From Candidatus Paceibacter sp. (GTDB taxonomy: Bacteria > Patescibacteriota > Patescibacteriia > Magasanikbacterales > UBA922), in the NCBI GenBank assembly GCA_020725175.1, contig DYFM01000004.1, positions 20,015-84,014 of the forward strand: 64,000 bases of DNA. The letters are read 5' to 3'. Below, piece by piece: positions 6,393 to 62,215 of this stretch; position 1 is the first letter of the stretch; each line of letters starts with the position of its first letter. The notes under the pieces are model-generated. The model worked only from the letters and a program-made list of their open reading frames with translations. It searched no databases and was not told the origin of the DNA. The translations under genes were made by a program, and so were the position numbers.

Positions 6393-7604
6393 CTACTGAG
6401 TGATAATGTCATTATGCTGTAACGCTTGTGTCAACTTTGCCAGCGTGCGAACGGTGTATACAATATCTTTTTTGGTTGTCTTTTTCCCCATAGTAAAGCG
6501 AAGGGAAGAAGCTGCATCTTTGGGATTTCTTCCGATCGCAGACAGTACATGAGAAGCTTCTGGCTCTCCGGTGGCGCAAGCAGAGCCGCTGGAACAATAA
6601 ATACCGTACGCATTGAGATAGATGATGAGTGCTTCGGCATCTACACCTGGAATGAGGACATTGACATTGTTCACCAATCGTTGACCTGATTGTAATCCCG
6701 GCCCATTGTAAAGAATTGAGGGAATATGTTGTTGAAGTTGATACCAAAAATACTGTTGCAGATCAGCCAATCGGCGAACTTCTTTTGATTTATGTTTTTC
6801 CGCAAGAGCAAGAGCGGTGGCTATCCCAACAATGCCGGGAACATGTTCAGTTCCACTTCTCAGGTGCATTTCTTGTCCGCCACCATAGAGTAGTGGGGTA
6901 AGAGTTGTATGCTTTCTTTTATAGAGCACGCCAATTCCTTTTGGACCGTAGAGTTTGCTTCCATTAAACGAGAGTAAGTCTACATGTAACTTTTCAACAT
7001 CAAGTAAGAGTGTAGTGGTTGCTTGGGATGCATCAGTATGAAAGTATGGGAAGACTGTTTTGTTCTCTTTCCTGTGCTTTAAAATCATTCTTCCAATATC
7101 GGCAAGCGGATATATGGTACCAATTTCATTGTTGGCATACATGAGAGACACAAGAATCGTTTCCTTTTTCAGAGCCTTTTTCAAACTTGTTAGAGAAAGT
7201 TGACCGTCCGTATCTACCGGAAGGTATGTAACTTCAAAACCTTCGTTTTCGAGTACTCGTAGCGCTTCCAACGCAGCCGGGTGTTCTACCCGAGAAGTAA
7301 TGATGTGGTTACCGTGTTTATGGTGTGCGCGAGCGGTACCGAGTATCGCGGTATTGATAGACTCAGTTGCGCCGCTGGTAAAAAAAATACTGTACGGTTC
7401 GGTGTGAAGAATGTCTGCTATGGTGCGCCGGGCAGTTTGGATAGCGTTGCTAGCTACTACTCCAAGGGAGTGAAGTGAAGAAGGGTTACCATAGTATTTT
7501 GTAAAGTACGGCAGCATCGCTTTTACGACTTTTGGGTCCGTGGGGGTGGTGGCAGCATGGTCGAGATAGATGTGGGGGATTTTTTTTGGTTTAGGAGGAA
7601 GCAT
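6393..7604 (-). CDS. iscS: cysteine desulfurase (IscS/NifS family, PLP-dependent)
   Basis: 403 aa; 'IYLDHAATTP', 'FTSGATESIN', PLP-lysine region 'SFNGSKLYGPKGIGVLY', active-site loop 'SSGSACATG'; TAG stop. Confidence 0.85.
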   Translation of the reverse strand: MLPPKPKKIPHIYLDHAATTPTDPKVVKAMLPYFTKYYGNPSSLHSLGVVASNAIQTARRTIADILHTEPYSIFFTSGATESINTAILGTARAHHKHGNHIITSRVEHPAALEALRVLENEGFEVTYLPVDTDGQLSLTSLKKALKKETILVSLMYANNEIGTIYPLADIGRMILKHRKENKTVFPYFHTDASQATTTLLLDVEKLHVDLLSFNGSKLYGPKGIGVLYKRKHTTLTPLLYGGGQEMHLRSGTEHVPGIVGIATALALAEKHKSKEVRRLADLQQYFWYQLQQHIPSILYNGPGLQSGQRLVNNVNVLIPGVDAEALIIYLNAYGIYCSSGSACATGEPEASHVLSAIGRNPKDAASSLRFTMGKKTTKKDIVYTVRTLAKLTQALQHNDIITQ

Positions 7605-7616
7605 AAGGAGTGAAAT

Positions 7617-7656
7617 TGAGAAACGTATAAAACCGATAAAACTTGTAAAACAGATA
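7617..7656. repeat. four phased ATAAAAC/GTTTTAT heptamers (about 10-bp spacing) in iscS upstream region
   Basis: 'gtATAAAACcgATAAAACttgtAAAACagATAAAACtttt' directly upstream of the iscS start codon. Confidence 0.5.
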
Positions 7657-7838
7657 AAACTTTTATATTAGAAAAAGAAGTTTTATAATAGGGGTTCGTA
7701 TGAATTGGTGTATGTTCTGAATTGTACGATAATTTGGCACTATCATAACATGGAGTGAATGGAAGTTCAATTTTTCTTTTCATGATGAAAAAACCGACCA
7801 AGCGGTGGTCGGAAGTAGGAGGGTAGACAGGTGGTTTT

Positions 7839-10110: not shown

Positions 10111-10351
10111 AGGGTGCCCATCAGGGCAGATAGAATTGGTGTAAAAAATAATAACCGTATTGTAACACGTCGGTAAGCGCTGTCAAGGAGAAAAGTGTTA
10201 TAAAACTTATAAAACTATACCTCCTTCATGTCGGTAAAAAAAGTTTCCTTTGTTTACTGTAGAAAGTGTGTCTCCGTTGTTTTTTCTGTGTGATAGTTTT
10301 ATCTGTTTTGTATGCTTTATCTACTGCTTAGTCCTATGCGTTTTGCATGCT

Positions 10352-11488
10352 TTATACATTGTTTGCTACCACCAACTGCCCACACGCCGCCGCAATATCG
10401 TCTCCCATGGTTTTTCTTTGGGTGACGGTGAGTCCGTGTCGGCGGAGGATGGATTTGAATGTATCAATTCGATCTTGGTGGCTGCGTTCAAATGATTTTC
10501 CCATTACCGGGTTGAGTGGGATGACGTTAATTTTACTCACCGCCGTTTTTTTAATGTATGTTGCCAATTCCTCCGCCAGTTCCGGCGTGTCATTTACCTC
10601 ATTGATAAGTGTATATTCGTAGGTAATGTGATGTTTGCGATTGCCATGTGTTTTATGATATTCATGTGACCAAGCAGCCAATTGCTTCAAAAATTCCGGC
10701 ACAGTGGTCGGTACGATTTCTTCGCGCTTTTTTTGATTGGCACTATGTAAAGAAATGGCAATCCGCACGTCCGGCCACTCCGGATCGGTAAGAAGTTTGG
10801 TAAGTTGGGTTAATATTCCAACTGTGGAGATGGTGATTTTTGTTTTACCGAGGTCGGTATAGGTAAGCCAAGTATGAATAGTTTGTTTTACGTTTTCATA
10901 ATTCGCCAGTGGTTCACCCATTCCCATAAAGACGATGTTCGAGATACGGGTTGATTGAACCTCCCCCAACCCCTCCTTCGAAAGGAGGGGGGATTTGTTT
11001 GTTGGTAAAAGGCTCTGTAGACTCCTCCCCTTGCGAAGGAGAGGATGGGAGTGGTTTCCGTTCAAAAAATACATCCAAAACCGATACTGATCAATAATCT
11101 CATCAGCCAGTAAACTACGTTTCAATCCCATGGTTCCGGTAGCGCAAAAAGTGCAGCGCATGGCACAGCCGATTTGTGAGGAAACACAGATTGTCCACTG
11201 GCCTCTTTTATTGGCCATGAGAACAGTTTCAAAATATTTCCCATCAATGGATTTCAGAATTGCTTTATAAGTATCGTGATTTTTGCTTTCGTAAAGCTTG
11301 AATAAACTTACACTGATCCAAGGTACTTTTTCTTCTAGTTTTTCACGCATTGGTTTGGAAAGTGTTGTAATGTCAGTCCAACTTGTTTTAGTGGGCTCAA
11401 AGAAAGCTTGATTGATTTGTTTCAAACGAAAAGCCGGTTCGGTTGGGAAGAGGTCTTTGATTTGTTGTTCTCGGGAGATGGGTTTCAT
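10352..11488 (-). CDS. rlmN: 23S rRNA/tRNA (adenine-C2)-methyltransferase RlmN (radical SAM), carrying an about 30-aa in-frame insertion derived from a palindromic repeat
   Basis: 378 aa; 'CVSSQIGCAMRCTFCATG' CxxxCxxC radical-SAM motif, 'VFMGMGEPLAN', C-terminal 'MGDDIAAACGQL'; insertion 'PLLRKGRSLQSLLPTNKSPLLSKEGLGEVQ' encoded by repeat at 10960-11052. Confidence 0.85.
   Translation of the reverse strand: MKPISREQQIKDLFPTEPAFRLKQINQAFFEPTKTSWTDITTLSKPMREKLEEKVPWISVSLFKLYESKNHDTYKAILKSIDGKYFETVLMANKRGQWTICVSSQIGCAMRCTFCATGTMGLKRSLLADEIIDQYRFWMYFLNGNHSHPLLRKGRSLQSLLPTNKSPLLSKEGLGEVQSTRISNIVFMGMGEPLANYENVKQTIHTWLTYTDLGKTKITISTVGILTQLTKLLTDPEWPDVRIAISLHSANQKKREEIVPTTVPEFLKQLAAWSHEYHKTHGNRKHHITYEYTLINEVNDTPELAEELATYIKKTAVSKINVIPLNPVMGKSFERSHQDRIDTFKSILRRHGLTVTQRKTMGDDIAAACGQLVVANNV
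10960..11052. repeat. Family A double-hairpin miniature repeat (copy 1, inside rlmN)
   Basis: two hairpins 'cccctccttcgaaaggagggg' and 'tcctccccttgcgaaggagagga' separated by 'atttgtttgttgg'; related copies at 15781-15895, 29436-29480, 31662-31712. Confidence 0.7.
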
Positions 11489-11511
11489 GTTAAGTTAACA
11501 GTGAAGTATCT

Positions 11512-11724
11512 TTAGTGAGTAGGTTTTTTGGGCGCCTTTGATAGTACACTATAAGAATCAGCTTCTAGTTGTTGAAGATTATTAATTTGTTTTTTTAATT
11601 CCACAAGATTTTCTCCTATACGAATAAAAATGTCCAGCTTGCGGTTTATATTTTCACGAAGCTGTTGCGTTACAGAAGAAAAAACAGTGCTTTCTTTTAA
11701 CTGTTCCTGCTGTTCTGTGGACAA
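11512..11724 (-). CDS. hypothetical coiled-coil protein (TTG start in track; frame stays open upstream to about 11870 without ATG)
   Basis: 70-aa ORF; in-frame upstream extension YLQNEAKKLGEQVIELKSQLNIL with no ATG; weak. Confidence 0.25.
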   Translation of the reverse strand: MSTEQQEQLKESTVFSSVTQQLRENINRKLDIFIRIGENLVELKKQINNLQQLEADSYSVLSKAPKKPTH

Positions 11725-11885
11725 AATGTTTAGCTGACTTTTTAGTTCAATAACCTGTTCGCCGAGCTTCTTTGCTTCATTTTGAAGATAGGTGAACCGC
11801 TCAATGAGATGATCTATTTGTTCTTGATAGGCTGAATAGTATTTTGGCTTTTCTGGGTTTATATATTTTTGTTATCAGTGTTATT

Positions 11886-13640: not shown

Positions 13641-14364
13641 GTGGTAAATGATCTGAGACGTCTATATCTAGGCAGGCTGCGGAATGAACTGTAAGAGTGG
13701 GACTGGTAAATAGCATATCTACTGCCGCGTCGGCAAAGCCTGGATGCGTCTTTTGCCTCATGTTGAAGGTTGATTTGAGTGTTTCGCCAAAAACACTTGG
13801 TAATACTGCGTCAATACGTTTGGCCGATTCCGTATGTGGTTTCATATTGGTGTCTCCGGACAGAATGACATGTGGTTTATCTTGTATCTCATTGATAATC
13901 GTTTCACTCATCTGAAGGCGACGCGGGTTGTCTTCACCGTCAACTCCCCAAATCCCATGCCAACTGTAGACAAAAAGTTGTTTCGTGTTTATCGCAACTT
14001 CGGCCCGGCACATGTTTCTAGGGAAAAATTCCGCATCCTCCACGGTGCTGCTTGAAACCCCAAATGGGACATCAAAAAAGACAGGGGAATGGGACGTGAT
14101 TGGAAAACGGGAAAATACCGCATTACCCATTTCTGTATTAGATTTTTTATCAATAGCTGCCGGAGCAAATACCGCTTGGTGGTCAGGAAAAAGTTTTTGC
14201 AGTTCGTCAAAAGAACGTAATTGTTTACTAGAACTGAGGTCATGTCCATCGTACACTTCTTGAAATGCCATAATGTCGGCATTTTGTTCTAGGAGAAATT
14301 CGATCATGGTATCCCAAAGCTTTCCTCCGAGCCAAATATTCAACGAAAGATAAGAAATTTTCAT
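13606..14364 (-). CDS. endonuclease/exonuclease/phosphatase (EEP) family protein
   Basis: 252 aa; 'LSLNIWLGG', 'DIMAFQEV', C-terminal 'SDHLPLVASI' catalytic His motif. Confidence 0.7.
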   Translation of the reverse strand: MKISYLSLNIWLGGKLWDTMIEFLLEQNADIMAFQEVYDGHDLSSSKQLRSFDELQKLFPDHQAVFAPAAIDKKSNTEMGNAVFSRFPITSHSPVFFDVPFGVSSSTVEDAEFFPRNMCRAEVAINTKQLFVYSWHGIWGVDGEDNPRRLQMSETIINEIQDKPHVILSGDTNMKPHTESAKRIDAVLPSVFGETLKSTFNMRQKTHPGFADAAVDMLFTSPTLTVHSAACLDIDVSDHLPLVASISLPDTD

Positions 14365-15392: not shown

Positions 15393-15624
15393 ACTTCAAA
15401 GGCTTATGAGGCTTCCTAGGCTTACAAGGCCTACGAGGCACTTTAAATACGTATTGAATGTAGTTTGAGATATTGAAAAATAGAAACTTGAAATGTGGGT
15501 TTTTGAATAACAAGTCAACTTGTTACCCTGCCAACTTGTAAACTTTTCAACGTAGGTATCATAACAAATTGCGGAGGAAAATAAAACGGCTATTCAGGAA
15601 TGTTGGGATCGTTCTTTGGGTTTT

Positions 15625-15780: not shown

Positions 15781-15895
15781 TGTTTGACACATCACCCTTG
15801 CCCTTTCCTAAAAGGAGAGGGAATTGAGGTGAAGTGTCAGTCCCCTTCTCCTTTTAGGAGAAGGGGCGAGGGGATGAGGTGTCAATCCCATTCTT
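15781..15895. repeat. Family A double-hairpin miniature repeat (copy 2, full length with terminal inverted repeats)
   Basis: 'tgacacatcaccc..ccctttcctaaaaggagaggg..ccccttctccttttaggagaagggg..gggatgaggtgtca'; overlaps the last 14 codons and stop of the GH1 gene. Confidence 0.7.
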
Positions 15896-17095
15896 CCGAA
15901 TTATCTCTCGATACAAATACGCCGACGGTCTTGGTTTTCGCTCCAGCGTCTCATAATCAATCTCAACCAATCCAAATCGCGGCCAAAACCCTTCGGCCCA
16001 TTCGAAGTTGTCCATAAATGACCAGTGGAGATACCCACGAACATCTGCACCGTCTTGAATGGCACGGTGCACTTGCTTTAGTGATTCTACGAGAAACCAA
16101 GGTCGTTTTTCGTCTGTTCTGTCAGCCAATCCATTTTCGGTGATGTAGATTGGTTTGTTATATCTTTTAGCGATCATGAGCACATGATACATGGCTTCCG
16201 GATAGAGCTCCCAACCTAGGTCAGAAGTTTTTTTATTTTCATTATCAGGAGTGAATAAACTACCATTGATTCGGTGGTGAAAATAATGGTTGACGCCAAT
16301 GAAATCTTGGTGGGGTTTAATTTGGTTGAGAAAAAATGTGTTGCTCCACCAGTTGGCAAGTTTTGAGAGAATGAGATTGAGCGGTTTATGGTTGGCGGGT
16401 TCGATAAATTGCATGTTGTGCGCAATACCAACCTGAGATTTGTGATTTATTGTTTTGATAGTTTGATAGGCAACTTTGTGGGTGGCAATGAGGCGACGTT
16501 TAACTCTCAAGTATGAAAGAATATTTTTTTCTTCCGGAGGCCAAATACCTTGTTGATGAGAAAGCGCGGAAATGATAGTGGGTTCGTTGAGGGTGATCCA
16601 AAACGTAACATCATCTTTGAGGTACGATACGACTTTTTCAACATACCGATTGAAATACCCAACACTTTTTTTGTGTTTCCATCCACCTTGTTTGTCGAGC
16701 CACAATGGAATTGGCCAATGATAGAGTGTAACAAATGGTTCCATGCCGTGTTGCCGCAAGGTTTTTATGACGTCTTTATAATGTTCGAGTTCAAATTCAT
16801 TGAAGACCCCTTCTTCTGGTTCAATCCGGGACCATTCAATAGAAAAACGATGAGCCATGTGGCCGAGTTCTTTGGCGAGGGCAAAATCTTCCTTGTATCT
16901 CGTGTAGTGATCGCACGCAACGTCGGACAAAAAATTCTCATAGCCGTGTTTGTCGATATGACCTTGATCGTGAAGAAATTGTTTGCGCTTGGCCGAGCGT
17001 TCCCATTCGGTCCAGTTGTTGCAGAGGTTTCCCTCTACTTGGTGGGCGGAGGTAGAGGCGCCCCAGAAAAATCCTGTGGGGAAGTTTAAAGGCAT
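15854..17095 (-). CDS. glycoside hydrolase family 1 (beta-glucosidase / 6-phospho-beta-glucosidase)
   Basis: 413 aa; N-terminal 'FPTGFFWGASTSAHQVEG', acid/base 'TLNEP', nucleophile 'YITENG'; C-terminal 14 residues and the stop are supplied by the Family A repeat. Confidence 0.85.
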   Translation of the reverse strand: MPLNFPTGFFWGASTSAHQVEGNLCNNWTEWERSAKRKQFLHDQGHIDKHGYENFLSDVACDHYTRYKEDFALAKELGHMAHRFSIEWSRIEPEEGVFNEFELEHYKDVIKTLRQHGMEPFVTLYHWPIPLWLDKQGGWKHKKSVGYFNRYVEKVVSYLKDDVTFWITLNEPTIISALSHQQGIWPPEEKNILSYLRVKRRLIATHKVAYQTIKTINHKSQVGIAHNMQFIEPANHKPLNLILSKLANWWSNTFFLNQIKPHQDFIGVNHYFHHRINGSLFTPDNENKKTSDLGWELYPEAMYHVLMIAKRYNKPIYITENGLADRTDEKRPWFLVESLKQVHRAIQDGADVRGYLHWSFMDNFEWAEGFWPRFGLVEIDYETLERKPRPSAYLYREIIRKNGIDTSSPRPFS

Positions 17096-17176
17096 AATTG
17101 TAAAGTTTAAAGTTGGTGGTTTAGAGTGAGTACCAATATTAATATCATCTTTTGACTTTTATATCGGCATAGGAAC

Positions 17177-17242
17177 CTACCAACTTTCTAACTTGCCAAC
17201 TTGCCAACTTGTCAACTTGTAAACCTGCTAACTTACCAATCA
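17177..17242. repeat. Family C octamer microsatellite (ACTTGCCA)n, degenerate
   Basis: 'aacttgccaacttgccaacttgtcaacttgtaaacctgctaacttaccaa'; other arrays at 15520-15545, 27128-27185, 29196-29226. Confidence 0.6.
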
Positions 17243-21477: not shown

Positions 21478-21700
21478 ATCTCTCGATTTGAATCCGCCCA
21501 CAGCCCCCACCTCCACCCCCACCCGAGGCGGGTAAACAAGGCGGGTAAACAAGGCTGACAAGCAAGGTGTGCAAAGCAAGGCGGACGAGGGTTTTATTCC
21601 CTCCCGATATTATCGGGAAAAACTACCTATAGCGATACCTCGTCAGCTTCCACCCTCCACCCTAGGCGGACAGGTAAGGCGGACACGTGCGGCGGGGACA
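21478..21700. repeat. Family B gene-upstream repeat (long variant)
   Basis: 'cccacccgaggcgggtaaacaaggcgggtaaacaagg ... ggcggacaggtaaggcggacacgtgcggcgggga'; shorter copies 21993-22082 and 32815-32868. Confidence 0.6.
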
Positions 21701-21992: not shown

Positions 21993-22082
21993 TAATCCGC
22001 CCCCACCCCCACCCGAGGTGGGTAAACAAGGCGGGTAAACAAAGTGGACAGGTAAGGCGGACACGTGTGGCAGGGAAATTCA
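21993..22082. repeat. Family B gene-upstream repeat (core copy)
   Basis: 'ccgcccccacccccacccgaggtgggtaaacaaggcgggtaaacaaagtggacaggtaaggcggacacgtgtggcagggaaattcat'; contains hairpin cccacc-cga-ggtggg, tandem 14-mer GGCGGGTAAACAAG x2, palindrome gacacgtgtc. Confidence 0.6.
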
Positions 22083-27095: not shown

Positions 27096-27202
27096 ATTGT
27101 GGGGTTAGTTTAGCAGAATTGAGGGAAAAATCAAGTTGAGTTGGCAGGTTAGCAAGTCTGCATGTTGGCAAGTTTGTGGCATGTGTATGTGTGTTATCAA
27201 GC

Positions 27203-28020: not shown

Positions 28021-28243
28021 AGTGACAGGACTTTTATGAGTTGCTTTTAGTATAACATACTTTGATGTTTTCTAGGAGATGGTGATGGGGATAACAAAAT
28101 AAATTCCAAGATACAAGAAACAATTTCCAAACAAATTCCAAATAATAAATATTAATTTCCAAAATTGTTTGGTTTTTAAAGATTACATATTGGATATTGT
28201 TTGGAAATTGTAACTTGAAATTTGCGATTTACTGCCATGCAGT

Positions 28244-28876
28244 TTATTGTTTTCCCTCAATTCCGCCGAGGAGAACTAACGCAATCAAACCAAGACGGCG
28301 ATCGAGATTTTTTCCCGGATCTTGAGAAAAGTCAGCATCGATGGTGATGAGAAAGGGGTTGAAACGGTGTTTGAGTTGGCCAACAACTTGTCCTTGGTGA
28401 GTAACTGTATATGATTGCGGAATAAGGTTTGTGATGAAGCGACGAAGTAGCGCGAGTACCGTGCTATCTTCGATGAATTTCCCAATTTCCTGATCTTGAG
28501 CATCAAGAATGAGCCATTCATCTTTGAAGAGTGCGGCTTGAATACCTTTGCGTCGAAAAGCGCCAATTTTTTCATTTGATTTGCTGTCAAATACATCATA
28601 CACCGCATTGAGGTCAATGATTTGTCGAGCATGAATGCGCAGTAGTTCTTCGGTTTTCGATTTATTATTATATAGACGAATATCTTCACGTAGTTTGAAT
28701 GCTTTCATTTCTCCATAGAGTACCTCGGTATTTGTTTGGTCAAATATACGAAACTCAGCGCCGAAAAGTTTCCAGAATTTACGTTTGAGAGTGAATGTTT
28801 GGGAGTCGAAATTCATAAGTCTAAAGTCTAAAGTAGTTGTATTGAATGGATTTTTTTTAGAGAAAACTTGCAGCAA
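28244..28876 (-). CDS. LURP-one-related (LOR/DUF567, tubby-like) family protein
   Basis: 'KRKFWKLFGAEFRIFDQTNTEVLYGEMKAFKL' matches N-terminal LOR pattern (KxxFWSLGDxFxIxDxxG..KAF); probable start Met at 28816. Confidence 0.5.
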   Translation of the reverse strand: MLQVFSKKNPFNTTTLDFRLMNFDSQTFTLKRKFWKLFGAEFRIFDQTNTEVLYGEMKAFKLREDIRLYNNKSKTEELLRIHARQIIDLNAVYDVFDSKSNEKIGAFRRKGIQAALFKDEWLILDAQDQEIGKFIEDSTVLALLRRFITNLIPQSYTVTHQGQVVGQLKHRFNPFLITIDADFSQDPGKNLDRRLGLIALVLLGGIEGKQ

Positions 28877-29779
28877 TTATACGGTAAACGATGCAGTGCG
28901 GTCAAATCCTGAAAGATCTTTTTTGATGGTGACTGTTGCTTTTGGGAAGTAATTGGTGATGAGTGGTTTAATGAGTTCTGATTGGTCAGGATCGATTTCG
29001 AAGTAGCACATAACACGTATCACATAACACGTATCACCCGATAGCCATTCTTGGAGTTGTTTTAATAACTCTTCATATAAAGCCAGACCCTTGTTCTCAG
29101 CTACTAATGCGGATCTGGGTTCGTGTTGGATGCTTGGTTCAGATTGAAATTGTTCTGCTGTGAGGTAGGGAAGATTGGCGGTGATGAAAAGATGACAAGT
29201 TGGCAAGTTGGCAAGTTGGCAAGTGTTGATGAATGGTGTGAGGAGATTGCCGTGGAGGAAGGTGATTGGTGTGTTATGTTTAGCAGCGTTTTTTTGAGCA
29301 ACTTTAAGAGCTGGTTTGGAAATATCGGTGGCGTAGGTTGGAACTGTTACATTGTTATATTGCTGTATTGTTTTTTGGATTGATATGGGAATGCAACCGG
29401 AGCCGGTGCCGATGTCGATAAGGGTGATTCTATTCAACACCTCACCCCTGCCCTCTCCTAAAAGGAGAGGGGGTTGTTTGATTTGTTTGATTACTTCTTC
29501 TACTAGAATTTCTGTATCAGGTCGCGGAATAAGTGTGTGTTTATTGACCAAGAAATCAAGGCCAAAGAATTCTTTATGGCCGGTGAGGTAGGCGAGGGGA
29601 ATGCCTCGTTTTCGTTTTTTGGTAAGATAGCTAAAGTGAAGTGAGGTAAAAACCGAAACAGATTCTTTTTCGTGGATCAAAAGATACTCGCGGGGTTTTT
29701 TTAGTACATGCGCGAGGAGAAGTTCGGCATCAAGTCGGTCGATGTTGTTGGTTTGTTTGAGGAGGGTTTTGATAGTCAT
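28877..29779 (-). CDS. prmC: release-factor glutamine N5-methyltransferase PrmC/HemK, with three repeat-derived in-frame insertions and an NLPY variant of the NPPY motif
   Basis: 'LIDIGTGSGCIPISI' SAM motif I, 'ITANLPYL' (NPPY position), C-terminal 'EPRSALVAENKGLALYEEL'; insertions from repeats at 29436-29480, 29196-29226, 29011-29040. Confidence 0.7.
   Translation of the reverse strand: MTIKTLLKQTNNIDRLDAELLLAHVLKKPREYLLIHEKESVSVFTSLHFSYLTKKRKRGIPLAYLTGHKEFFGLDFLVNKHTLIPRPDTEILVEEVIKQIKQPPLLLGEGRGEVLNRITLIDIGTGSGCIPISIQKTIQQYNNVTVPTYATDISKPALKVAQKNAAKHNTPITFLHGNLLTPFINTCQLANLPTCHLFITANLPYLTAEQFQSEPSIQHEPRSALVAENKGLALYEELLKQLQEWLSGDTCYVIRVMCYFEIDPDQSELIKPLITNYFPKATVTIKKDLSGFDRTASFTV
29011..29040. 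repeat. tandem 15-mer (cacataacacgtat)x2 inside prmC
   Basis: 'gcacataacacgtatcacataacacgtatcaccc' translated in-frame as 'CYVIRVMCY'. Confidence 0.6.
29436..29480. repeat. Family A half-element (single hairpin) inside prmC
   Basis: 'acacctcacccctgccctctcctaaaaggagagggggttgtttgatttgtttg'; translated in-frame as 'PLLLGEGRGEV'. Confidence 0.65.
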
Positions 29780-32814: not shown

Positions 32815-32868
32815 TCTACCCCCACCTCCACTCAAGGTAGGTAAACAAGGTGGATAGGTGATAATACA
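32815..32868. repeat. Family B gene-upstream repeat (short copy) in prfA 5' region
   Basis: 'ctacccccacctccactcaaggtaggtaaacaaggtggataggtgataa'. Confidence 0.5.
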
Positions 32869-33067
32869 AAGGTAGAGATGATTGATCGAAATAACGAAAT
32901 AAAGAAATAGCGAAATTTTGCAATAAAGAATGGTGTACGATTTATTTCTTCATTTCTTTGTTTCGTTATTTCGAAAAACAAATATCCGTAACTTCGTATT
33001 ATCCGTAATCCGTAAGGCTAATAAAAAGCAGACCAGAAAACCGGCCTGCTTGTGAAGATGTACATCG

Positions 33068-40490: not shown

Positions 40491-40690
40491 GCATACTCGG
40501 CATAATCTTGCGTGATATTTACAAAAAATGTTTATTACCAAAAATTATACGGTGTAAGATCAAGAGGGTTATTTGCACTTTTGTATTTCAATAAAAAAGC
40601 TGGGGTGTATCAATCCACCCGTGGCGGACAGGTTGCTCTGCTGCTTCTATCAAATAGGAACTTATTTCTTCGCAATTTTTCCGAAATAAT

Positions 40691-40726
40691 GTTCCGTTCC
40701 GCCCCTCGCGAGGGGCGGAACGGAAC
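40691..40726. promoter_or_regulatory. 36-bp perfect palindrome GTTCCGTTCCGCCCCTCG|CGAGGGGCGGAACGGAAC upstream of the 1275-aa hydrolase gene
   Basis: perfect 18-bp arms, no following T-tract; GC-rich within AT-rich IGR. Confidence 0.5.
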
Positions 40727-40785
40727 ATCTTTCGGGGAATTGCGTCAGAAAATGTTCGGCAGTGGCTGAATAGTATCTAAAGCAA

Positions 40786-46401: not shown

Positions 46402-49400
46402 TTGGTTATCATGGGAAAAATAATCAAAAGACATTGGCACAAAACACTCCTTCTCGTCCTGCTGGTTTCAGTAGCAGGATTTTTTGGGTTGTTTGGATCA
46501 CGTTATGGTTTTAAGACCGATGTGGTAAAAGCAGATTCACGGACGATTACTTGTAATGGAACCAGTAGAACACTTACGGTTGGTGCATATACCGATGCGG
46601 CAGGAACGACTTTTGAATCAGGATCGGATCTTATTTTGGATCAGGGGAGTGGGGCTTGTACGTTTACGTTGAATGGGACTGTTTCCCTTGCTTCTTTGAA
46701 TGTGGGGAGTGGGGTGACGTTGACGCATAGTGATAATACTACAGCGCAAACATATACATTGGTGTTGAATGTTACTGGGGACGTCACTGTGTCAGGCTCT
46801 ATCGACGTGTCGGGAAAAGGATTTAGCCCTGGCTATGGAAGTGGTGCAGGAATGAATTATAGTGCCGGAAACATGAGTGGTGCTGCATACGGTGGATATG
46901 GTGGAAGCGGTGGGTGGTCATCAAGTTATACAAAAGCCGTTTCATATGGCAGTGCTTTGGCTCCAGCAGAAATCGGTTCTGGAGGTGGAAATGGATATGC
47001 AGCTACCACAGGTGGAGATGGAGGAGGGCATGTGAAGATTACTGCAACCAACCTGACTGTTTCTGGATCAATTTTAGCAAACGGAAATTCGGGTACTATT
47101 TCAGGAGGATATGGAGGCTCTGGTGGATCTGGCGGGAGTGTTTATTTGCTTGTAAGTAGTACAGTGAATTTAACTGGTGCTACCCTGACAGCAAACGGTG
47201 GGAATGGAGCAAATGGAACAGTCAATAATACGTCTGCGGATGGAGGTGCAGGTGGTGGAGGTCGTATTGCTATTGTGAACTACGCGTCATATTCTGCCCC
47301 CACTACGCTCAGTGTTTATGGTGGAACAGCTTATCTCAATGCTCAGGATGGTGGAGCCGGTTCAATATATATCAAAGAAAATGGGACAAATGGGACATTG
47401 ACATATGATAATAATAGTTCTGCCGATAGTATTGGTAGTCGAATTACCGATTCAGCAAACTATACGATCGATGAGTTGGTGTTAAAAAATGGTACTTCAC
47501 TTACTATTCCGTCCGGAGTTACCATCAACTCAAGCCAATCCACTTTTAATAATACTGGGACAAACACTTTAACTCTCGTAGGGATATTCAATCTTACAAA
47601 TACAGAATTTACTTTTCCATCCAACTTAACTTTTTCAGCAAGTGGTAATGCTTCAATCGGAACATCAATTACTTCTTCCACTATTGCAGGCACTGTTACA
47701 TTTACTTATGGGATGACACAGAATCTAAGTAGCCTATCTACTGTAAGGGTGGCATCTGGCGGCACACTTTTTCTTTCTTCATATACTACGTCAAATGCAT
47801 TGACAATAGATACGTTGACTGTAGAAGGTACTTTAACCCACACTGATAATACGACCGCACAAACTCATATAATAAATGTCGTGGCTTCGGACGTCACTGT
47901 CTCCGGTTCAATCAACGTCAACGCCAGAGGATTTGCCGGTGGTGCCACTGGTTCCCATGGGAGTGGAAACGTAAATGGCTATGGTATTGGATATTCAAAC
48001 GGAAATAGTGGTGGGGCTGCATACGGAGGTTATGGCGGAGCCGGCGGATATAACGGAGGGGCAAATGGTAAAGCGACTGCCTATGGGGATGCCCTTGCTC
48101 CGACAGATCTTGGTTCAGGTGGTGGGGGTGGATACAATTCAGCTGGTGGAGATGGTGGAGGAACTATTAAAATTACCGCAACAAACTTGACGGTTACCGG
48201 TTCAATTGTAGCCAATGGCGAAACAGGAAAAACAACAGGTACATACGGTGGAGGTGGGGGATCTGGTGGGAGTATATATTTGGTAGTTAGTAGCACGGTA
48301 GATTTCACTGGGGCAACAATTACTGCTAATGGTGGTAATGGAGGGGATGGAAGTGGTAATGATACATCTGCTAACGCAGGCGCCGGAGGGGGTGGTCGTA
48401 TCGCGATCGTCAACTATAGCTCGTATACGGCACCAACTACCCTGACAGCCTATGGTGGTATTGGACCGACCAATGCCTCTGATGGTGGGGCTGGTTCAAT
48501 TTATATTAAACAAACAGGTACCAACGGCATATTGACATACGATAATGCTGTTTCTGTTGATGGTACCGGGTCAATTATCACCGCTTCTGCCAACTATACC
48601 ATCGATGAACTGGTCTTAAAAAATGGTGCTGCATTGACTCTGCCTTCAGGCGCAACAATCACCTCAAATCAAACAACGTTCAATAATATTGGGACGCCAA
48701 ATCCTACTTTTGTCATTAGTGGAACCTTTAACCCGGGCAACACAAGTTTTATTTTTCCCTCCTCATTTACTACTACTTTTGGCAGCACAGGGGTTTTGAG
48801 TACTGTAACGTCTTCTACACTGCAGGGAACAGCAGGTTGGACATACGGGTTTACGCATAGTTTGTCAAATCTTACTATAGACAGTGGATCGACAGTGACA
48901 CTTTCTTCTTTTACGACATCAAATGCACTCTCCATAGCTACAATTATAATTAATGGGACCCTTACTCATACCGATAATACGACCGCACAAACGCATGTTA
49001 TCAATTTATCGGCAACAGATCTAACTATTGGTGCTTCGGGGTCTATTAGTGGTAATGCTAAAGGATATACCGGCTCATCTGCTGGTACTGTCGGAAACGG
49101 AACCGGTGGAGGTACCTATGCCGGTGGAGCTGGGGGAGCTTCTCATGGGGGTGTTGGTGGGGCAGGAACAAATAGCTCGCAAAAAGCAGCATATGGCAGT
49201 GCATCATTGCCTGTTACCATAGGTTCTGGAGGAGGAGGGGGTTCGGGATGGGGTGGTGGTGATGGTGGGGGGTATGTAAAGGTCCTTGTCTCTAATCTTA
49301 CATTGGCGGGGTCAATTAGTGTCAATGGCGCGGGTGGGACATCCAATGGGTCTTATTCTGGTGGTGGAGGATCTGGAGGCGGAGTTTATTTGAATATTTC

Positions 49401-52400
49401 CGGATCATTTAGTGGTGCAGGTTCTATCTCGGCGGATGGTGGTGATGGTGGGGGTGGTAGTGCTTCCTATGATGGTGGAGGAGGCGGTGGGGGCCGTATT
49501 GCCATTGTTCCTCTTGAAGGATCTCTATCATACACAGGTACAATTACCGTAGATGCAGGTGTTGGTCCGGACGCAGCACAAGATGGTGGTACAGGTACAA
49601 TTTATATTTTACCGAACTCTTCTTTTACTCTTGATGCTTCATATACATCGGCTGCTTGGCCAGGTACAATTTCAGGTACTTCAACCGACCATGATGTGAG
49701 TGTTGCGCAAGTCGATCTCAAGATTCAACGTTTTTCTGATAGTTATTACTGGAACGGTTCAGACTGGACAGCGAGTGAAACCTGGGTGACCTCAACCGGT
49801 ACGAGTACCTGGAGTTATAGTTTTTCGGGTGGTAATATGACTGATGGTACCTATACCGTCACTTCAAGAGCAACGGATAGTGATGGTGAGGTGGAAGCAG
49901 TATTGACTAGTGATAGCTTTACATTTTCTTCCATAGCCAGTGCTCCTCCTGTTGCCGGCGTTCCTGCTTACGCTTCTCAAGCGAGTGATGGTTCCGGTTA
50001 TGTCACAATTACAGCCGAAGTCTCAGACCCAAATTTTGATTCTCTTAAACTTCGAGTTGATTATTCCGATAATGGAGGTATCAATTGGTATGATCCGGAT
50101 TTGGTGAGTGTTAGCGCGTCGGTAGGTACGAATCCGGATCTAGATGATGCTAATGTGTATCAAATTGGAACAGTTAGTAATATCTCTACGGCCTCGAGTA
50201 ATACACTGTCAATTGTGTGGAATACCAAGTCAGCGTCAAATGGGAATGGGGCAATTGCCGGTCGCCAGACTGATATAATGGTTCGTGTTCTTCCAAATGA
50301 TATTATCGGTGAAGGAGATGGAACCTATGCGACTTCTACAGCATTTACGGTAGACAATTCGGCCCCGAGTGGTCCGGGAACTGCCTCTGCCTCATTTTCC
50401 GGCTTAAATGCTTCTATTTTTTGGACTGCAGTGACTGAAGATGAGTTTAGTCGATATGAAATATGGTATGGAACAAGCCAGAGTGATGTAGAAGGGAGGA
50501 CCGGCGCGGCACAACCATACACGACAAGTTCTGATCCTAATCTTTCGAGTACTTCAACCATAAACGTGACTATTTCAAGCTTGTCTCTTGGGCAAATTTA
50601 CTATTTTCAAGTTTTTGCTTTTGATGCTTATGGAAATTATAGTACGTCTACTGTAGTTTCAGGGACGGTGCCTGGCACCCCGCCTACGGTTTCCACACCA
50701 ACCCTTACACAACAATTGTCTGATGGGACGGGTTATATAACATTTACTACTCAAGTTCATGATACTGATACCGAAGATCTTTCGCTTCGAGTTGAATTTT
50801 CCGAAGATGGGAGCGCCTGGCGGAAGGCATATATTGTTACTTCATCGGTCAATTACGGTACCTCTACTATTTTTAATGTAAATACAAATCAAATCAGTGT
50901 TGATCGTTTGAGGGCCAATAATGGCTCTTTGTATTCCGATCTGGTCGCGCATTATGATTTTGATACAGATACCTCGACACTTGCTGATATTACTGGAAAT
51001 GGGTATAACGGTTTTTGGAGTACCGGTGCTGCTTCGCTTACCATCGGTAGATATGACAGTGCCGGGGATTTTGGTGCTCAATATGTACAAGTTAATACTC
51101 CAATATTAAATGACCCGCCTTTTTCTGTTTGTTTGTGGGCCAAACCAGACTCTCTTTCGCCAAGTTCTAATGATTATATTATTGCAAATGGCGCCCATAC
51201 TTCAGCAAAGGGTTTTAGTTTGTATTACAATACAAGTGGATGGAATTGGGTAGTCAAAAATATTTCATACAGCAAAACTCAGGTATTGAGCGCTTCTTCA
51301 GGGTGGAGTTTTTTATGTGGAACTTGGGATGGCACAGATACTGCTGGTGCAGTAAAATTTTATATAAATGGATCAGAAAATTCTACTACTGCAGTTGGTG
51401 GAGGAAGTAGTGTGAGTCAAGATTTAAGAATTGGAGAAGCAAGTGATGCTACAGGATATAGATTTGAAGGCTTAATTGATGAAATTTCAATATTTAATCG
51501 TATCCTTTCGTCTGACGATGTGCTCGAGTTAATGAATGCTCCGTATCCTTCAGGTTCAACCACTACACTCACCATTGTTTGGGATCCCACCTCTGCCTCC
51601 AATGAAGGTGGTGCTCTCACCGGTGAACAAAGTGACATTCAAGTTCGAGTGCGAGCGAACGACAGCTTGCAAAATGGGGAGTACGTAACTTCATCGGAAT
51701 TTAGCGTGGATGTGCAGGCGCCGACCGGCTTAGCAAATCTTGCCGTTACCGCTACTAGTACCAATGGCACGGTGGATCTCTCTTGGAGTGTAACAAGTGA
51801 TACCAATTTCAACCGTTATGAAATTTGGTACGGCTCAAGCAGTTCTGATGTGTCTTCTCGCTCCGGATCAGCCACTCGTTGGACGACCAGTTCTGATAGC
51901 AATCTCTCTAGCGGGGCTACTACCAGTTCTACTCTTACCGGTCTCCCTGGCGGTACCTTGTACTATAGTGTGTTTGCTATTGATGATTATGGAAATACGG
52001 CCACCACGACACAAGTGTCAGCGACTATTGTGCGAGATTTTGTGTCTACTCAAACTGGCAACTGGAATGTAGGTACCACTTGGGGCGGAGCATGTTCTTC
52101 TTCGTGTACTGCCGGAACCGATTTCCCAACCTCTACTGACACCGTGGTAGTTACCAGTACTCATGTGGTTACTATTCCGGCCTCAACCAGTGCCAGCTTC
52201 AATAGTCTTAATATCCGTGGTACTGCCACGGTAAAAATGGTGGGAAACATTGGTACCGGTACGGATATTACCATCGAAAACGGGGCGACATTACAACAAG
52301 AAAATACCTCTCTGCAAACAATTTCCGGAACACTTACCGTGGAGAATGGGGGAACCTTTACACATACTGCCCAAACCGATACATCTTCAAGTGGTGGCTG

Positions 52401-55400
52401 GACTACTCTTTCAAACATTCATTTTTCTGCGGATACAATTCTCATTAATTCTGGAGGGGCGATTACCGCCTCGCAAAAAGGATTTGCCGGAAGTCCTGCG
52501 GCTACAAACGCTTCCGATCTTGCAGCGCAAGGGTATGGTCCGGCCGGAGGATATAAAGCATCCGGGGGAGCGTCTCATGCTGGAACAGGAGGAGCTTCTT
52601 CTTGGAGCGGGGGCGCACAAAATACTACTTATTGTACAAAAACCCTTCCTGCTACGATGGGTTCCGGAGGGTCAGCAGCCCAAGGCACCAGCCCAAATGG
52701 TGATGGTGGAGATGGAGGTGGCTTGATTCAATTATATGCAAATCAAATAACAGTAACTGGTTCAATTTTATCTTTGGGAGGTGATGGAACCGCGGGGTCA
52801 GCTTCCGGTTCAGGGGGTGGTTCTGGTGGAGGAGTATTTGTTTCTACAACAGTCATCAGTGGTTCAGGTACTATTTCTGTCAATGGAGGAAATGGCTACA
52901 GTTATGGAAACTTTAATGGTGGTGGTGGAGGGGCTGGGTGTGTATCCATTATCGGTACAGAAGGGTCACTCTCCGGTTTTAGTGGATCAATCAATAAAAC
53001 CGGGGGTGTGGGGCCTGGTGCCGCTGGTGATGGTGGGGCAGGTACCCTCTACATCCGTCCCGACTCATCAATCACCAGTCTCACCACGAGTTCATACACA
53101 AACTTTTCTTGGTCGGGCACTATCTCCGGTACGTCAACTGATCATGATGATTCTGTTTCAAATGTTCACCTGAGAATTCAGCGAGGCAGTGACTCTCAAT
53201 ACTGGGACGGCAGTACCTGGACGGCGAGTGAAACTTGGGTTACCAGTACCGGAAACACATCGTGGAGTTATGATATCGCGGCCGGAAATTTTACTGATGG
53301 AGTGTCCTACACCATATCATCACGCGCGACCGATTCTGAGTCGGAAGTGGAAAGTGTATATGATACCGCCACTTTTAGTTTCTCAACCGAAGCCAACACA
53401 GCTCCGACCGCTACGGCTCTGAGTGTTTCACAAATTGCTTCTTCCACTGCCAGAGGAATAGTGTATGCCACTACCACGGTTTCGGATTCAAACTTGCAAG
53501 ACACCAGTCTTTACATTGATTACTCGCTTGACAATGGAGTGAATTGGACTTCTTCTACCATTGATGTCTTCAGTATTTCCGGACAAACAAATGGTTACAG
53601 TACCTCGACCGGTCAAATAAGTGGGATCGATTCTTCGGCTGGAGAAAAAACCGTTACCTTTATCTGGTATGCTTACACTGATGCCGGAGCGATTGACATC
53701 TCTTCCGCTCAGCTCAGAGTTACCCCAAACGATGGTACCGTAAACGGCAGTATCCAAACCTCGGCTTCCTTCAATCTCGACACCAATCCACCATCCGGTC
53801 TCGGCTCTTTCACTGTTTCAAGTTACACCTCTGAGCAAGTTCACCTCACTTGGGCGTCTACCACTGATACCAACTTTGATCATTACGAAATCTGGTATGG
53901 TACCAACCAAAATGATGTTCAAAATAGACAAAATACCGCCATCGAATGGGATACGACTGATGATGCTGATCTTGCTATCGCCGGTACCGCCTCGACTACC
54001 ATCACCGGGCTTACTCCTGACACGTACTATTTCAAAATCTTTGCAATTGATAGCTACTACAACGAATCTACTGTCGCCGACATCAATACCACCAACTCAA
54101 ACACGGCACCGACTTCAACCATTTCTGTCCAACCATCCCAAACCACCAACGGCACACAAACAATTTCGTTCACGGCCACCATTCAAGATACCGACGCCAC
54201 GCAAACGAGCATGATCGTGGAACATTCCACTGACGGATCTAGTTGGACTTCTTCTACTATTCTTTCTGTTACCCCGGACTTTGGTTCTGTCACCACATCC
54301 ATCGGACAGATCACCTTAATTGATACCGATCTAGCAGACAACAACACCGTCTCGCTTGCCGTGACTCTGTCTGCTAGTGTCAATTTTCCTAATACCAGCG
54401 ATGATACTGTCTACATCCGCCTTACTCCTCAAGATTCATACGCCAACGGATCAAGTCTCACTAGTTCCGCATTCATTGTCGACACTATCAACCCTACGAC
54501 ACCGGGTTCATTTACGGTTTCAACTTCAACGACATCAACAATTACATTTACATACGGCAGTGCTTCAACTGAGGATCATTTTAGCCAATACAAAGTATAT
54601 TACACCCAAGCAAGTAGTGGGGTTACCATCAACGATACCGAGATAAGCAGTTCTACGGTATCGGCGCTTGGCTCGCGAACTTTCAACGGCGAAACTACCT
54701 TTACTCTTGCGAGTCTTTCTCCAAACCTTCCTTATACCATTACCATCAAGGCTTTTGATAGCTACGGAAATGTTTCCAGTCTAGCAACCGAAACAACCGC
54801 CTATACCAACCCAACCATTCCAATCAGTCTGGCGGTATCTTCTCTCAACGAAACCACGCTGCAGCTTTCTTGGAATGCAAATTCCAATCCATCCGGATCA
54901 ATCTATTACCTTGCCTACAGTGACAATACCTTTATTGCCACCACTACCGCGACCAGTACCAATGTCACCATTGAAACTCCGGGACAAGAATATACCTTTA
55001 AAGTACGAACACAATACGCCAATTCCACAACGACGTATTCTGATTATTCTGCTACTGCAAGCGGGTCGACTACTATCAATCCTCCAAACGCTCCAACCGG
55101 AGTAACACCAGCAAGTGTATCAACATCCACCCTTACGCTTTCATGGACAGATACCAATTCCTACGAAGATAATTATTTTGTATACCTTGATACGACGGAA
55201 GGGGAGAGTGATACGCTGGTTACCACTACAGCATCAAACGTTACTTCAACTGCTATCTCGGGACTAACTCCAAATACCACTTACTACTTCACTGTTGTCG
55301 CTTCCAACACGGCCGGTACTGCAACATCTACTCAATCTAGCACAACAACAATTTCACTGTCACCTGATGCTCCGACAGATCTTACGGTAACAAACATTCA

Positions 55401-61913: not shown

Positions 61914-62215
61914 GGAAATAACGAAATGTGTTTCCCTCTATCAGGGGGACGCAAGGGGGTCGTTCAGAGGTAGAGTGTTTGGAACTTGGATAGTGCTTTT
62001 ATGTTAGCCCTTTGCTAGCTAACTAAGGAATAACAGACGACCCAAGGGGAGTGTGTTGGAATGTACAATACACACTAAATAATAACTTTAAACACAAAGA
62101 GAGAAAATAAATTGTCAAAAACAGTAGATCTGAACAGCTATGGTTGATTGAAATAGGTGAAAAATGTGATTTCTTAATCAGTAAAATAGCAAACGCCAGA
62201 TTTTCCCAAAAACAA

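Follow-up and report, generated by a model that had tools for sequence, protein, structure and literature searches.

An insert of 100 nt in the gene rlmN of a Patescibacterium is the subject of this report. It lies in a stretch of 64,000 nucleotides, here called the window, on contig DYFM01000004.1 (assembly GCA_020725175.1, positions 20,015 to 84,014 of the forward strand), which is assigned to Candidatus Paceibacter sp. The insert is read through in frame. With fair though by no means complete confidence, we regard it as a doublet of inverted units of the BoxC/PIT/TM family, i.e., of non-autonomous selfish DNA repeats whose autonomous form would be a small cassette built around a DUF559 endonuclease gene.

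The window, part of a contig of 132,845 nt from a metagenome-assembled genome (JGI 3300029893, Ga0246236_1000063), has a GC content of 42.6%. By protein similarity its products belong to Patescibacteria, close to Magasanikbacteria and Peribacteria. The analysis also took in 9.7 kb of the contig lying outside the window, on the side of position 1, and so covers about 74 kb of this genome. L-numbers (L005, L251, L319, L392 etc.) denote comparison loci, P-numbers comparison proteins.

Triplex-type units in the window

Searched with the degenerate pattern CCYYYYCY-loop-RGRRRRGG, the window yields six hairpins, which fall at four loci (10970-90, 11024-44, 15801-20, 15842-64, 29451-70 and 31676-97). 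In 100 dinucleotide-preserving shuffles the mean was 0.02 and the maximum 1. The hairpins are where a first-pass annotation, made from the letters of the sequence, had placed them. The loci are an in-frame doublet in rlmN, an in-frame single unit in prmC, a doublet at the stop codon of a gene for a family 1 glycoside hydrolase (GH1), and a unit 14 nt past the stop of prfA, the last being the intergenic copy of that annotation, which is confirmed. Three of the four loci overlap coding sequence, two of them internally and in frame. A covariance model, R1, built from 50 foreign copies and 8 copies from the window and its relatives, recovers exactly these four loci and no others when run over the whole window with filters off. 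The host genes and the units, with their R1 scores, are:

10352..11488, minus strand: rlmN, 378 residues; the insert comprises residues ~143-178
10957..10989, minus strand: rlmN unit a; pyrimidine arm CCCCTCCTT (10989-10981), loop tcg, purine arm AAGGAGGGG (10977-10969), loop ttg, mirror purine block GGGGAGGTT (10965-10957); encodes SPLLSKEGLGEV; 9/9 Watson-Crick pairs, 9/9 allowed triads; 34.4 bits
10990..11022, minus strand: spacer of the rlmN doublet, between units a and b; encodes ...SLQSLLPTNK
11023..11056, plus strand: rlmN unit b, inverted relative to unit a and in a more decayed state; TCCTCCCCTT gcg AAGGAGAGGA t GGGAGTGGTT; gene-strand translation NHSHPLLRKGR; 9/10 Watson-Crick pairs, 9/10 triads; weak score of 13 bits, E = 0.08
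15854..17095, minus strand: GH1 gene; the element gives the last ~9 codons (DTSSPRPFS) and the stop
15786..15839, no strand assigned: GH1 unit a; hairpin CCCTTTCCT aaa AGGAGAGGG (15801-15821), flanked by the purine/pyrimidine blocks TGACACATCACCC (left) and GAGGTGAAGTGTCA (right); 39.0 bits (minus strand), 24.6 bits (plus strand)
15842..15885, plus strand: GH1 unit b; CCCCTTCTCCT ttt AGGAGAAGGGG cga GGGGATGAGGT(GTCA); 11/11 Watson-Crick pairs, 11/11 triads; 39.7 bits
28877..29779, minus strand: prmC, 300 residues, reading ...QPPLLLGEGRGEVLN...; the insert comprises residues ~102-114
29439..29471, minus strand: prmC unit, single copy; CCCTCTCCT ttt AGGAGAGGG cag GGGTGAGGT; encodes PPLLLGEGRGEV; 9/9 pairs, 9/9 triads; 49.2 bits
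31659..31712, minus strand: intergenic unit, 14 nt past the prfA stop; CCCCCTTTCCTT ttt AAGGAAAGGGGG acg GGGGGATAGGTT, with a partial block GAGGTTGG on the opposite side; 12/12 pairs, 12/12 triads; 26.3 bits (minus strand), 22.3 bits (plus strand)

All units are laid out alike. A short loop of variable sequence joins the pyrimidine arm to its complementary purine arm, and after about 3 nt there follows a purine block that mirrors the latter. The triads allowed are G.G-C, A.A-T and T.A-T, and the family definition admits loops of 1-6 nt. On the G-rich strand the consensus of the family reads CCCCTCTCC, 3-5 nt of loop, GGAGAGGGG, 2-4 nt and GGGGTGAGGTT. From copy to copy the third block covaries with the stem, as a mirror repeat. 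Because of this covariation the flanking block, at one time read as a "ACCTCACCCC box" serving as a fixed protein-recognition sequence, is now read as the mirror repeat of a triplex, and the box was dropped. The blocks at GH1 had been described as terminal inverted repeats; they turn out to be the third, mirror-image purine blocks of triplex-type units. By the triad check, the units of the window are compatible in sequence with a triplex, and each doublet folds as one hairpin, that of rlmN with -45 kcal/mol and the long one of GH1 with -62 kcal/mol. That all copies form one family, as had been surmised, is borne out by the shared pattern, with which the family consensus and R1 agree. Direct repeats around the four loci are not obvious, though the element ends are not sharply defined. 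Nor does any window unit have a GTAG or CGTC tag beside it; the flanking block is the purine mirror repeat instead.

Judged by this sequence architecture, the units belong to the BoxC/PIT/TM family of intrastrand-triplex repeats, and the mini-element of the first-pass annotation is a member of a known family (PMC4666352). BoxC and PIT (potential intrastrand triplex) are earlier names; TM, for triplex motif, is the name used by Holder et al. (2015, Nucleic Acids Res 43:10126, PMC4666352), who review both. The E. coli consensus is CCCTCNCCC-N3-6-GGGNGAGGG-N3-GGGNGAGGG. E. coli K-12 has 23 copies, "always" intergenic and without strand bias, with loops less conserved than stems and five inverted pairs. 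TM motifs occur in more than 260 genomes, in very large number in cyanobacteria including Synechocystis, some genomes having hundreds of copies. They form triplexes in vitro; in vivo footprinting did not support a stable triplex. They have been linked to genome instability, and a function has not been established (PMC4666352).

The window copies share with the published ones the three-block architecture, the loops of 3-6 nt and ~3 nt, the lack of strand bias, the loops that are less conserved than the stems, the inverted pairs and the wide phyletic spread. Both are rich in G/C (E. coli CCCTCNCCC / GGGNGAGGG / GGGNGAGGG; window CCCTCTCCT / AGGAGAGGG / GGGTGAGGT). R1 also detects a TM-like unit beside ycjD of E. 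coli, with 24.7 bits. The differences concern location and company. E. coli copies are intergenic, whereas the window has them in coding sequence, twice in frame, which appears to be new for BoxC/PIT/TM. The published family is reported to have no association with phages, plasmids or mobility genes, while here copies are common on phage contigs and repeatedly bracket a DUF559 nuclease gene (see below). Finally, the host is a member of the Patescibacteria, a group absent from Holder 2015 (PMC4666352).

Other searches for relatives yielded little. Rfam 15, applied to five multi-copy loci at E <= 1, gave a chance match to gyrA only, and literature text searched with the DNA strings GGGGTGAGGT and CCTCACCCC and with peptides (GEGLGVR and others) gave primers or nothing. 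On the same contig, ~2.1-2.3 kb past window position 1 (L257, 13934-13954), there is a doubtful, decayed triplex-motif remnant, CCCCTCTCC aacata GGAAGGG, with 14 bits; beside it, at 13700-13800, lies an intergenic cluster of other small hairpins (GAGGCTTTAGCCTCA, GAGGCTAAAGCCTCA, CCCAGCTAAAGCTGGG).

Host genes and insertion sites

The rlmN open reading frame (ORF) is intact and runs straight through both hairpins as ...HPLLRKGRSLQSLLPTNKSPLLSKEGLGEVQ..., immediately before the conserved VFMGMGEP motif, just as first described. The location then given for the element, 10960-11052, was right, the extent too short: the doublet spans 10957-11056. That it is an insertion, as proposed, follows from the alignment. 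The loop from DQYRFW to RISNVV has 12 residues in 90 of 111 homologues with a recognisable loop, and 42 in the window protein. Solved RlmN structures match with E = 1e-49 to 1e-51, the matches being split at residues 134 and 181. The radical-SAM motif CxxxCxxC (C108, C112, C115), MGMGEP (M188-P193) and the C-terminal catalytic C369 are all intact and invariant in the alignments. In the AlphaFold2 model, with a mean pLDDT of 90.2, the insert falls to 50-69 and sits between helix 128-142 and strand 182-187.

PrmC tells a similar story. Its loop between RPDTE and DIGTG typically has 20-24 residues in homologues and 31 in the window. HemK structures (T. maritima) match with E = 1e-20 and show a gap of 12 residues exactly at PPLLLGEGRGEV. 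The in-frame insert of the first-pass annotation therefore stands, its size does not: 12-13 residues, not 11. D122, G124 and G126 of the S-adenosylmethionine-binding D-x-G-x-G-x-G motif and N202-L203-P204-Y205, of the catalytic N-P-P-Y type, are intact and invariant in the alignment. The model has a mean pLDDT of 93.4 and the insert block one of 66, between helix 89-101 and strand 118-123. In both models the confidence drops only in the inserts, and both inserts are helix-strand loops. The earlier statement that the element lands in frame without disrupting the genes holds as far as the catalytic motifs are concerned. Helix-to-strand loops in radical-SAM barrels and Rossmann folds lie at the N-terminal ends of the strands, opposite to the cofactor-binding face. 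To judge from these folds, the inserts should sit away from the catalytic face.

The GH1 gene is a different case. Homology to solved GH1 enzymes extends to residue 406 of 413, and the element is read in another frame than in RlmN and PrmC. The stop does come from the element, as had been noted, the TAA (15854-15856) being formed by the loop of the second hairpin; the 14 codons said to precede it shrink to about 9. The RlmN and PrmC copies use the same orientation and frame and yield the same type of peptide, PLL-x-GEG-x-GEV; SPLLSKEGLGEVQSTR and QPPLLLGEGR are among the peptides to be expected from the host proteins. The rlmN element has no stop in any of its six frames (the two stops of the printed stretch fall in the flank), and three of the six frames are free of stops across the prmC copy.

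These observations suggest how the coding copies could have come about. The repeats would arrive by insertion at the DNA level. A copy within a gene would survive only if its length is a multiple of three, if the frame used is free of stops and if the site is an exposed loop off the catalytic face. The pyrimidine and purine tracts would leave most frames open and specify a linker peptide rich in Pro, Leu, Gly and Glu, of the PLL-x-GEG-x-GEV type. The sites in question would be the helix-to-strand loop preceding strand 2 of the radical-SAM barrel of RlmN and the loop preceding strand 1 of the Rossmann fold of PrmC.

RlmN relatives in species-representative genomes are at most 65% identical and have almost no triplex-motif elements. 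The closest relative, L005, is 80% identical; its loop has 76 residues. There, at 2541-2745, rlmN contains an insert of ~190 nt with the shared triplex unit at the right end, a half unit AACCTCCCCCAACCCCTCC at the left end, and nested palindromes between them, e.g., GTTCGGCTGAGGCTTC...GAGCCTCAGCCGAAC and GAGGCTTCGAAAGCC. The interior of this doublet is longer than, and different from, the rlmN spacer of the window, and the nesting suggests repeated insertion into an already inserted element. In a member of the Peribacteria whose RlmN is 58% identical to that of the window (L019), a triplex-motif unit of 28.9 bits (6574-6620) lies ~70 nt upstream of the rlmN start; it is the sole strong copy in 18 kb.

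In PrmC the element recurs. Eight of 120 homologues have it in the same loop, orientation and frame, which appears to be new: the same loop has been used in at least three lineages. Orthologues sharing the extra residues had been named as evidence against an insertion. Other PrmC lineages do share them, because the same element family sits in the same loop there; most orthologues lack them. In a tree computed with the loop masked, six of the eight form one clade. Their pairwise identity is 62-87%, an indication that the insert has been retained vertically for long. The window PrmC belongs to another clade whose other members lack the insert, and P0127 to a third. The copies of window and clade differ coordinately in all three blocks: the window has T-A where the clade has C-G, with T.G in L253 as an intermediate. 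Since the intervening lineages are without insert and the three blocks differ in concert, at least two, probably three, independent insertions are more likely than common ancestry, the alternative being repeated precise loss.

In other Patescibacteria, unrelated repeat-derived peptides occupy the same two loops in RlmN (P0076/P0086/P0092) and PrmC (P0202, P0173, P0126). They stem from other palindromic repeat families and include DPRFREDD, SAKGGSAFGG and GGFVTPSRVTLSSP. Because different families occupy them, the two loops may be regarded as general landing pads, and in-frame colonisation of both by palindromic repeats looks general in Patescibacteria. Such inserts also have a nuisance value. 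They break profile matches based on hidden Markov models (HMMs): precomputed Pfam annotation for PrmC lacks the methyltransferase domain, and the Pfam match of RlmN is only "faint". They can also create spurious "hypothetical proteins".

In behaviour, this is reminiscent of the Rickettsia palindromic elements, or RPEs (Ogata et al. 2000, Science 290:347, in the summary of PMC10969869). According to that summary, an RPE, too, is a palindromic repeat found in frame in unrelated housekeeping genes, to which it adds a conserved peptide compatible with the fold, and its hosts, too, are bacteria with small genomes and a host-dependent lifestyle. RPEs measure ~100-150 bp, are restricted to Rickettsia and have no third block of the triplex type; the units of the window have ~35-40 nt (doublets ~100 nt) and belong to a family that crosses phyla. 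The likeness is one of behaviour, and membership is not claimed.

Spread of the repeats and the DUF559 gene

The bare hairpin pattern gave at least 131 matches in IMG/VR viral contigs; among the matches listed, 100 of 131 carry a flanking block on one side. It is the same block as in the window copies, though it is not part of the pattern. A search anchored on the block, in turn, recovered the stem almost invariant. Triplex-motif units are frequent on contigs with terminase, portal and capsid genes, contrary to the statement that TM motifs are not associated with phages, plasmids or mobility genes (PMC4666352). On phage contigs many copies lie 9-60 nt past stop codons. In 69 cases from single-strand neighbourhoods of these contigs, 33 units had the same orientation as the genes and 36 the opposite one. 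Copies on one contig have similar loops, while those on different contigs do not. Absence of an orientation bias and likeness of loops within a contig favour copying at the DNA level within genomes. The behaviour of the loops, with doublets that fold as one hairpin, makes the earlier REP- or MITE-like reading a reasonable one. One viral contig (L223, IMG/VR 3300028586_000777) has, at 10425-11881, five tandem repeats of ~335 bp, each with a pair of oppositely oriented triplex-motif units. The "ACAC" subfamily, searched with a strict pattern, occurs on metagenome contigs that span 32-73% GC among the matches listed. A blastn search of plasmids with the 51-nt consensus gave 3 marginal matches and is too insensitive.

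The neighbourhood of the "ACAC" elements is instructive. Among the matches listed, 148 ORFs lie within 600 nt of such elements, and no Pfam family is more frequent in them than DUF559, which has 5 members; MTES_1575 adds another 2. DUF559 is a Vsr-like endonuclease of the PD-(D/E)XK type and MTES_1575 a related family. A local HMM search found six DUF559 genes in 776 kb of "ACAC"-subfamily loci, and none in 1.86 Mb of viral loci, in 689 kb of Patescibacteria loci or in the window. Four of the six are bracketed on both sides, in the order block-hairpin, gene, hairpin-block. The fifth has a strong score on one side, and the sixth lies between two doublets.

A second, independent sample of DUF559 genes was chosen by protein similarity alone: 33 records of a plasmid collection, from which 18 plasmid or chromid loci were examined. 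Four of the 18 are flanked by inverted units on both sides, namely in Pseudanabaena galeata, on two Synechocystis B12 plasmids and in Deinococcus aetherius. In Azospirillum lipoferum a strong unit is present on one flank; weaker units or arrays are seen at several further loci, and six loci are without any unit at E <= 0.05. The left flank in Pseudanabaena (L392) consists of block1, hairpin1, hairpin2 and block2', and the right flank is its exact inverse. The module of the GH1 doublet in the window (block, CCCTCTCC-type hairpin, CCCCTTCTCC-type hairpin, GGATGAGGT block) is the one that brackets DUF559, inverted, in L319 and L392; such bracketing of a DUF559 gene likewise appears to be new. The whole Pseudanabaena cassette, both modules included, lies inside a coding sequence of 4.8 kb, OA858_RS24335 (plasmid pPg_02, NZ_CP112876.1, 152116-154382), and appears to be read through in frame within this large host ORF.

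Some loci show further peculiarities. In Sphingomonas (L380) a DUF559 gene is found between the genes for the transhydrogenase subunits. On a Synechocystis B12 plasmid (L385) DUF559 follows a short DUF1156 ORF, maybe the truncated 5' part of a split gene. Triplex-motif-like arrays lie downstream of DUF559 in Neisseria gonorrhoeae (L386, 1438-2140, period ~281 nt) and in Photobacterium (L382, 1319-2203, period ~150 nt, alternating orientation). The E. coli gene ycjD is also a DUF559 gene, with TM-like units just downstream. It adjoins fabI (envM), which we take to be the site where BoxC was first noticed. The endonuclease is not mentioned in the triplex-motif paper (PMC4666352), and a link between DUF559 and repeats was not apparent in the titles and abstracts of the DUF559 literature searched.

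From the association and its geometry in two independent samples, we infer that DUF559 may be the mover of the repeats. The autonomous form would then be a small cassette with the DUF559 endonuclease gene between two inverted two-hairpin modules. The shared module suggests that the doublets of the window are gene-less, MITE-like derivatives of this cassette, and single units might be its solo ends. A unit can be expected to fold as a hairpin or, as single-stranded DNA, as an intrastrand purine-motif triplex, and the nuclease might act by homing-type repair copying or by cut-and-paste at such extruded structures.

Two known systems invite comparison. REPs and REPINs are likewise short GC-rich palindromes with a conserved flanking block, which occur as singlets and as inverted doublets folding as one hairpin (PMC3116915, PMC3333891), and RAYT, too, is a single-copy gene flanked by inverted repeats (Bertels & Rainey 2011, PMC3116915; Ton-Hoang 2012, PMC3333891). 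The window copies, however, have no GTAG/CGTC tag, and instead of a Y1 HUH transposase the gene flanked encodes DUF559, a nuclease of the Vsr-like PD-(D/E)XK type; REPs are also species-specific in sequence, while the triplex family is nearly constant from 30% to 73% GC. Y1_Tnp is not among the 25 most frequent Pfam families of the 148 + 148 neighbouring ORFs. Identity with REP/RAYT is thus disfavoured by the missing GTAG tag and draws no support from these most frequent families.

The second system is that of the Vsr-like homing endonucleases, which were grouped with DUF559 and Vsr in clade 58 by Steczkiewicz et al. (2012, PMC3424549). They share the family of the nuclease fold and set a precedent for a selfish, self-propagating gene. 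Known examples are housed by group I introns or inteins, and the exon sequences they recognise are long. The putative DUF559 cassette, by contrast, has palindromic triplex-type ends and would have gene-less derivatives.

Conservation, rival explanations and meaning

In unit a of rlmN, window and L005 are identical at 33 of 36 nt and at 7 of 9 four-fold sites; outside the element only 35% of 151 such sites are identical. Within the PrmC clade, 67-100% of the four-fold sites are identical in the element and 35-59% in the rest of the gene. There are 6-9 synonymous sites per pair and the pairs are non-independent, yet the direction is consistent. It points to a conservation of the element copies beyond what the host protein requires. 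That synonymous sites in the element are conserved while those of the host gene are near saturation appears to be new.

This conservation fits a purely neutral passenger poorly and is one of several points that weigh against the selfish repeats proposed here. The PrmC clade members L251 and L255 have no other copy within flanks of 21 kb and nevertheless retain the element. The nearest RlmN relative, 80% identical, already bears the insert. The window and the further 9.7 kb showed neither a DUF559 gene nor a transposase or RAYT. DUF559 has a nuclease fold and is not a known transposase, which makes it a candidate parent gene only; the two might occur together just because both insert at the same hot spots. 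In E. coli, finally, the copies are strictly intergenic and no mobility genes are near them (PMC4666352).

Several of these observations would be readily explained if the units were functional cis-acting DNA elements under selection, such as pause sites of replication or transcription (via a transient triplex or cruciform), recombination hot spots or factor-binding sites, and if coding copies were retained for this role of the DNA. The conserved four-fold sites are what one would expect, and so are the compensatory changes that keep hairpin and third block together, the persistence of the PrmC copy in a clade of 62-87% identity, even in L251 and L255, and the use of one loop, orientation and frame in at least three PrmC lineages. 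Still, most orthologues do well without the insert, and decayed copies exist (P0127, P0142, rlmN unit b). The conservation could also stem from gene conversion or recent re-insertion, given how few synonymous sites each pair offers. Earlier BoxC/PIT work, as far as it is cited in PMC4666352, saw no promoter, terminator or polymerase effects in vivo, and its own in vivo footprinting did not support a stable triplex. We consider such a role unlikely, yet it is the alternative to be taken most seriously.

If the hairpins worked in the mRNA, by stabilising 3' ends, terminating transcription or pausing translation, the position of the copies at the GH1 stop and behind prfA would be explained. As RNA the hairpins reach a high stability (-18 to -62 kcal/mol), two of the four loci are at 3' ends of genes, and on phage contigs many copies lie past stop codons. 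With 33 units in the sense of the genes and 36 against it, however, the RNA-level function suggested in the first-pass annotation is disfavoured, and as a candidate it was rejected. No U-tract follows the window copies, and Rfam has no match. The mirror covariation of the third block has no rationale in an RNA hairpin, purine-motif triplexes do not form in RNA (PMC4666352), and terminator activity was absent in the earlier experiments cited there. A function of this kind is quite improbable.

Hardly more credit, indeed slightly less, can be given to the idea that the encoded peptide, PLL-x-GEG-x-GEV, is itself useful as a recruited protein module, which might serve to link domains or to make contacts. 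All through the PrmC clade FPPLLGEGQG(G/E)V is conserved, and RlmN and PrmC share orientation and frame. Selection on the peptide is insufficient, however, because the four-fold sites are conserved too. Moreover, AlphaFold2 predicts the inserts with low confidence and gives them hardly any regular structure; that unrelated proteins have this peptide in common is due only to the DNA they share; most orthologues lack it, and the GH1 copy, in its different frame, merely supplies a stop.

Artefacts of assembly or gene calling, or host pseudogenes, can practically be dismissed, even though GC-rich palindromes on a metagenome-assembled contig can cause mis-assembly, because the identical 378-residue RlmN, insert included, was called in four independent samples from two sources, the ORFs are intact with all invariant catalytic residues, and the 80%-identical relative has the same unit at the same site.

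The window contains other repeats. A second family, in which 8-nt units are repeated in tandem (AACTTGCC; opposite strand, GGCAAGTT), is seen at 15508-15561, 17173-17242, 27139-27173 and 29182-29232. It is mostly intergenic; one copy, with three perfect units at 29198-29224, is in frame inside prmC and encodes CQLANLPTC in a second variable loop (alignment columns ~280-300). Intergenic tandem repeats of 8-9 nt, of the GATAAAAC and GAAATAAC types, lie at 7613-7678, 10277-10321, 32880-32974, 60144-60172 and 61883-61927; those upstream of prfA, 32886-32916 and 32944-32974, form an inverted pair with 87% complementarity. They might be protein-binding iterons or promoter-region repeats. A three-copy repeat (21494-21567, 21997-22057, 32816-32876) combines a C-rich run CCACCCCCACCC, GAGGTGGG and tandem GGTAAACAAGG units; it is probably a different family, since R1 gives only weak 6-11 bits. 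There are also a perfect GC-rich hairpin of 19 bp at 40689-40728 (ATGTTCCGTTCCGCCCCTC gc GAGGGGCGGAACGGAACAT) and, at 28100-28231, just downstream of ORF 28244..28876, an AT-rich inverted repeat with arms of 64 nt. A giant ORF of 4669 residues (46402-60411), probably a cell-surface protein, has several internal repeat families, among them ~285-nt FN3-like units at 55.2-58.4 kb and Gly-rich duplications of ~1.1 kb at 47.0-48.7 kb. The ORF upstream of it has a Pro/Thr/Glu-rich linker at 41.6-42.3 kb.

What, then, does the insert in rlmN mean? BoxC/PIT/TM repeats are able to live in frame inside essential genes of a very small genome, and by analogy they behave there like RPEs. More tentatively, in a proposal that we would call possible rather than probable, the TM repeats at large would be the ends and gene-less derivatives of a tiny selfish DUF559 cassette that can be read in frame, colonises coding sequence and is then long held at the nucleotide level; the essential genes of reduced-genome Patescibacteria and the 4.8-kb ORF on the Pseudanabaena plasmid may be examples of such colonisation. 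BoxC/PIT/TM are among the most widespread short bacterial repeats, and we know of no origin or means of spread for this family, an orphan for about 30 years. If true, the link to DUF559 would be the first concrete and testable candidate for what moves the triplex repeats, and the many small nuclease genes of this so far unexplained family, ycjD of E. coli among them, would for the first time have a role proposed for them.

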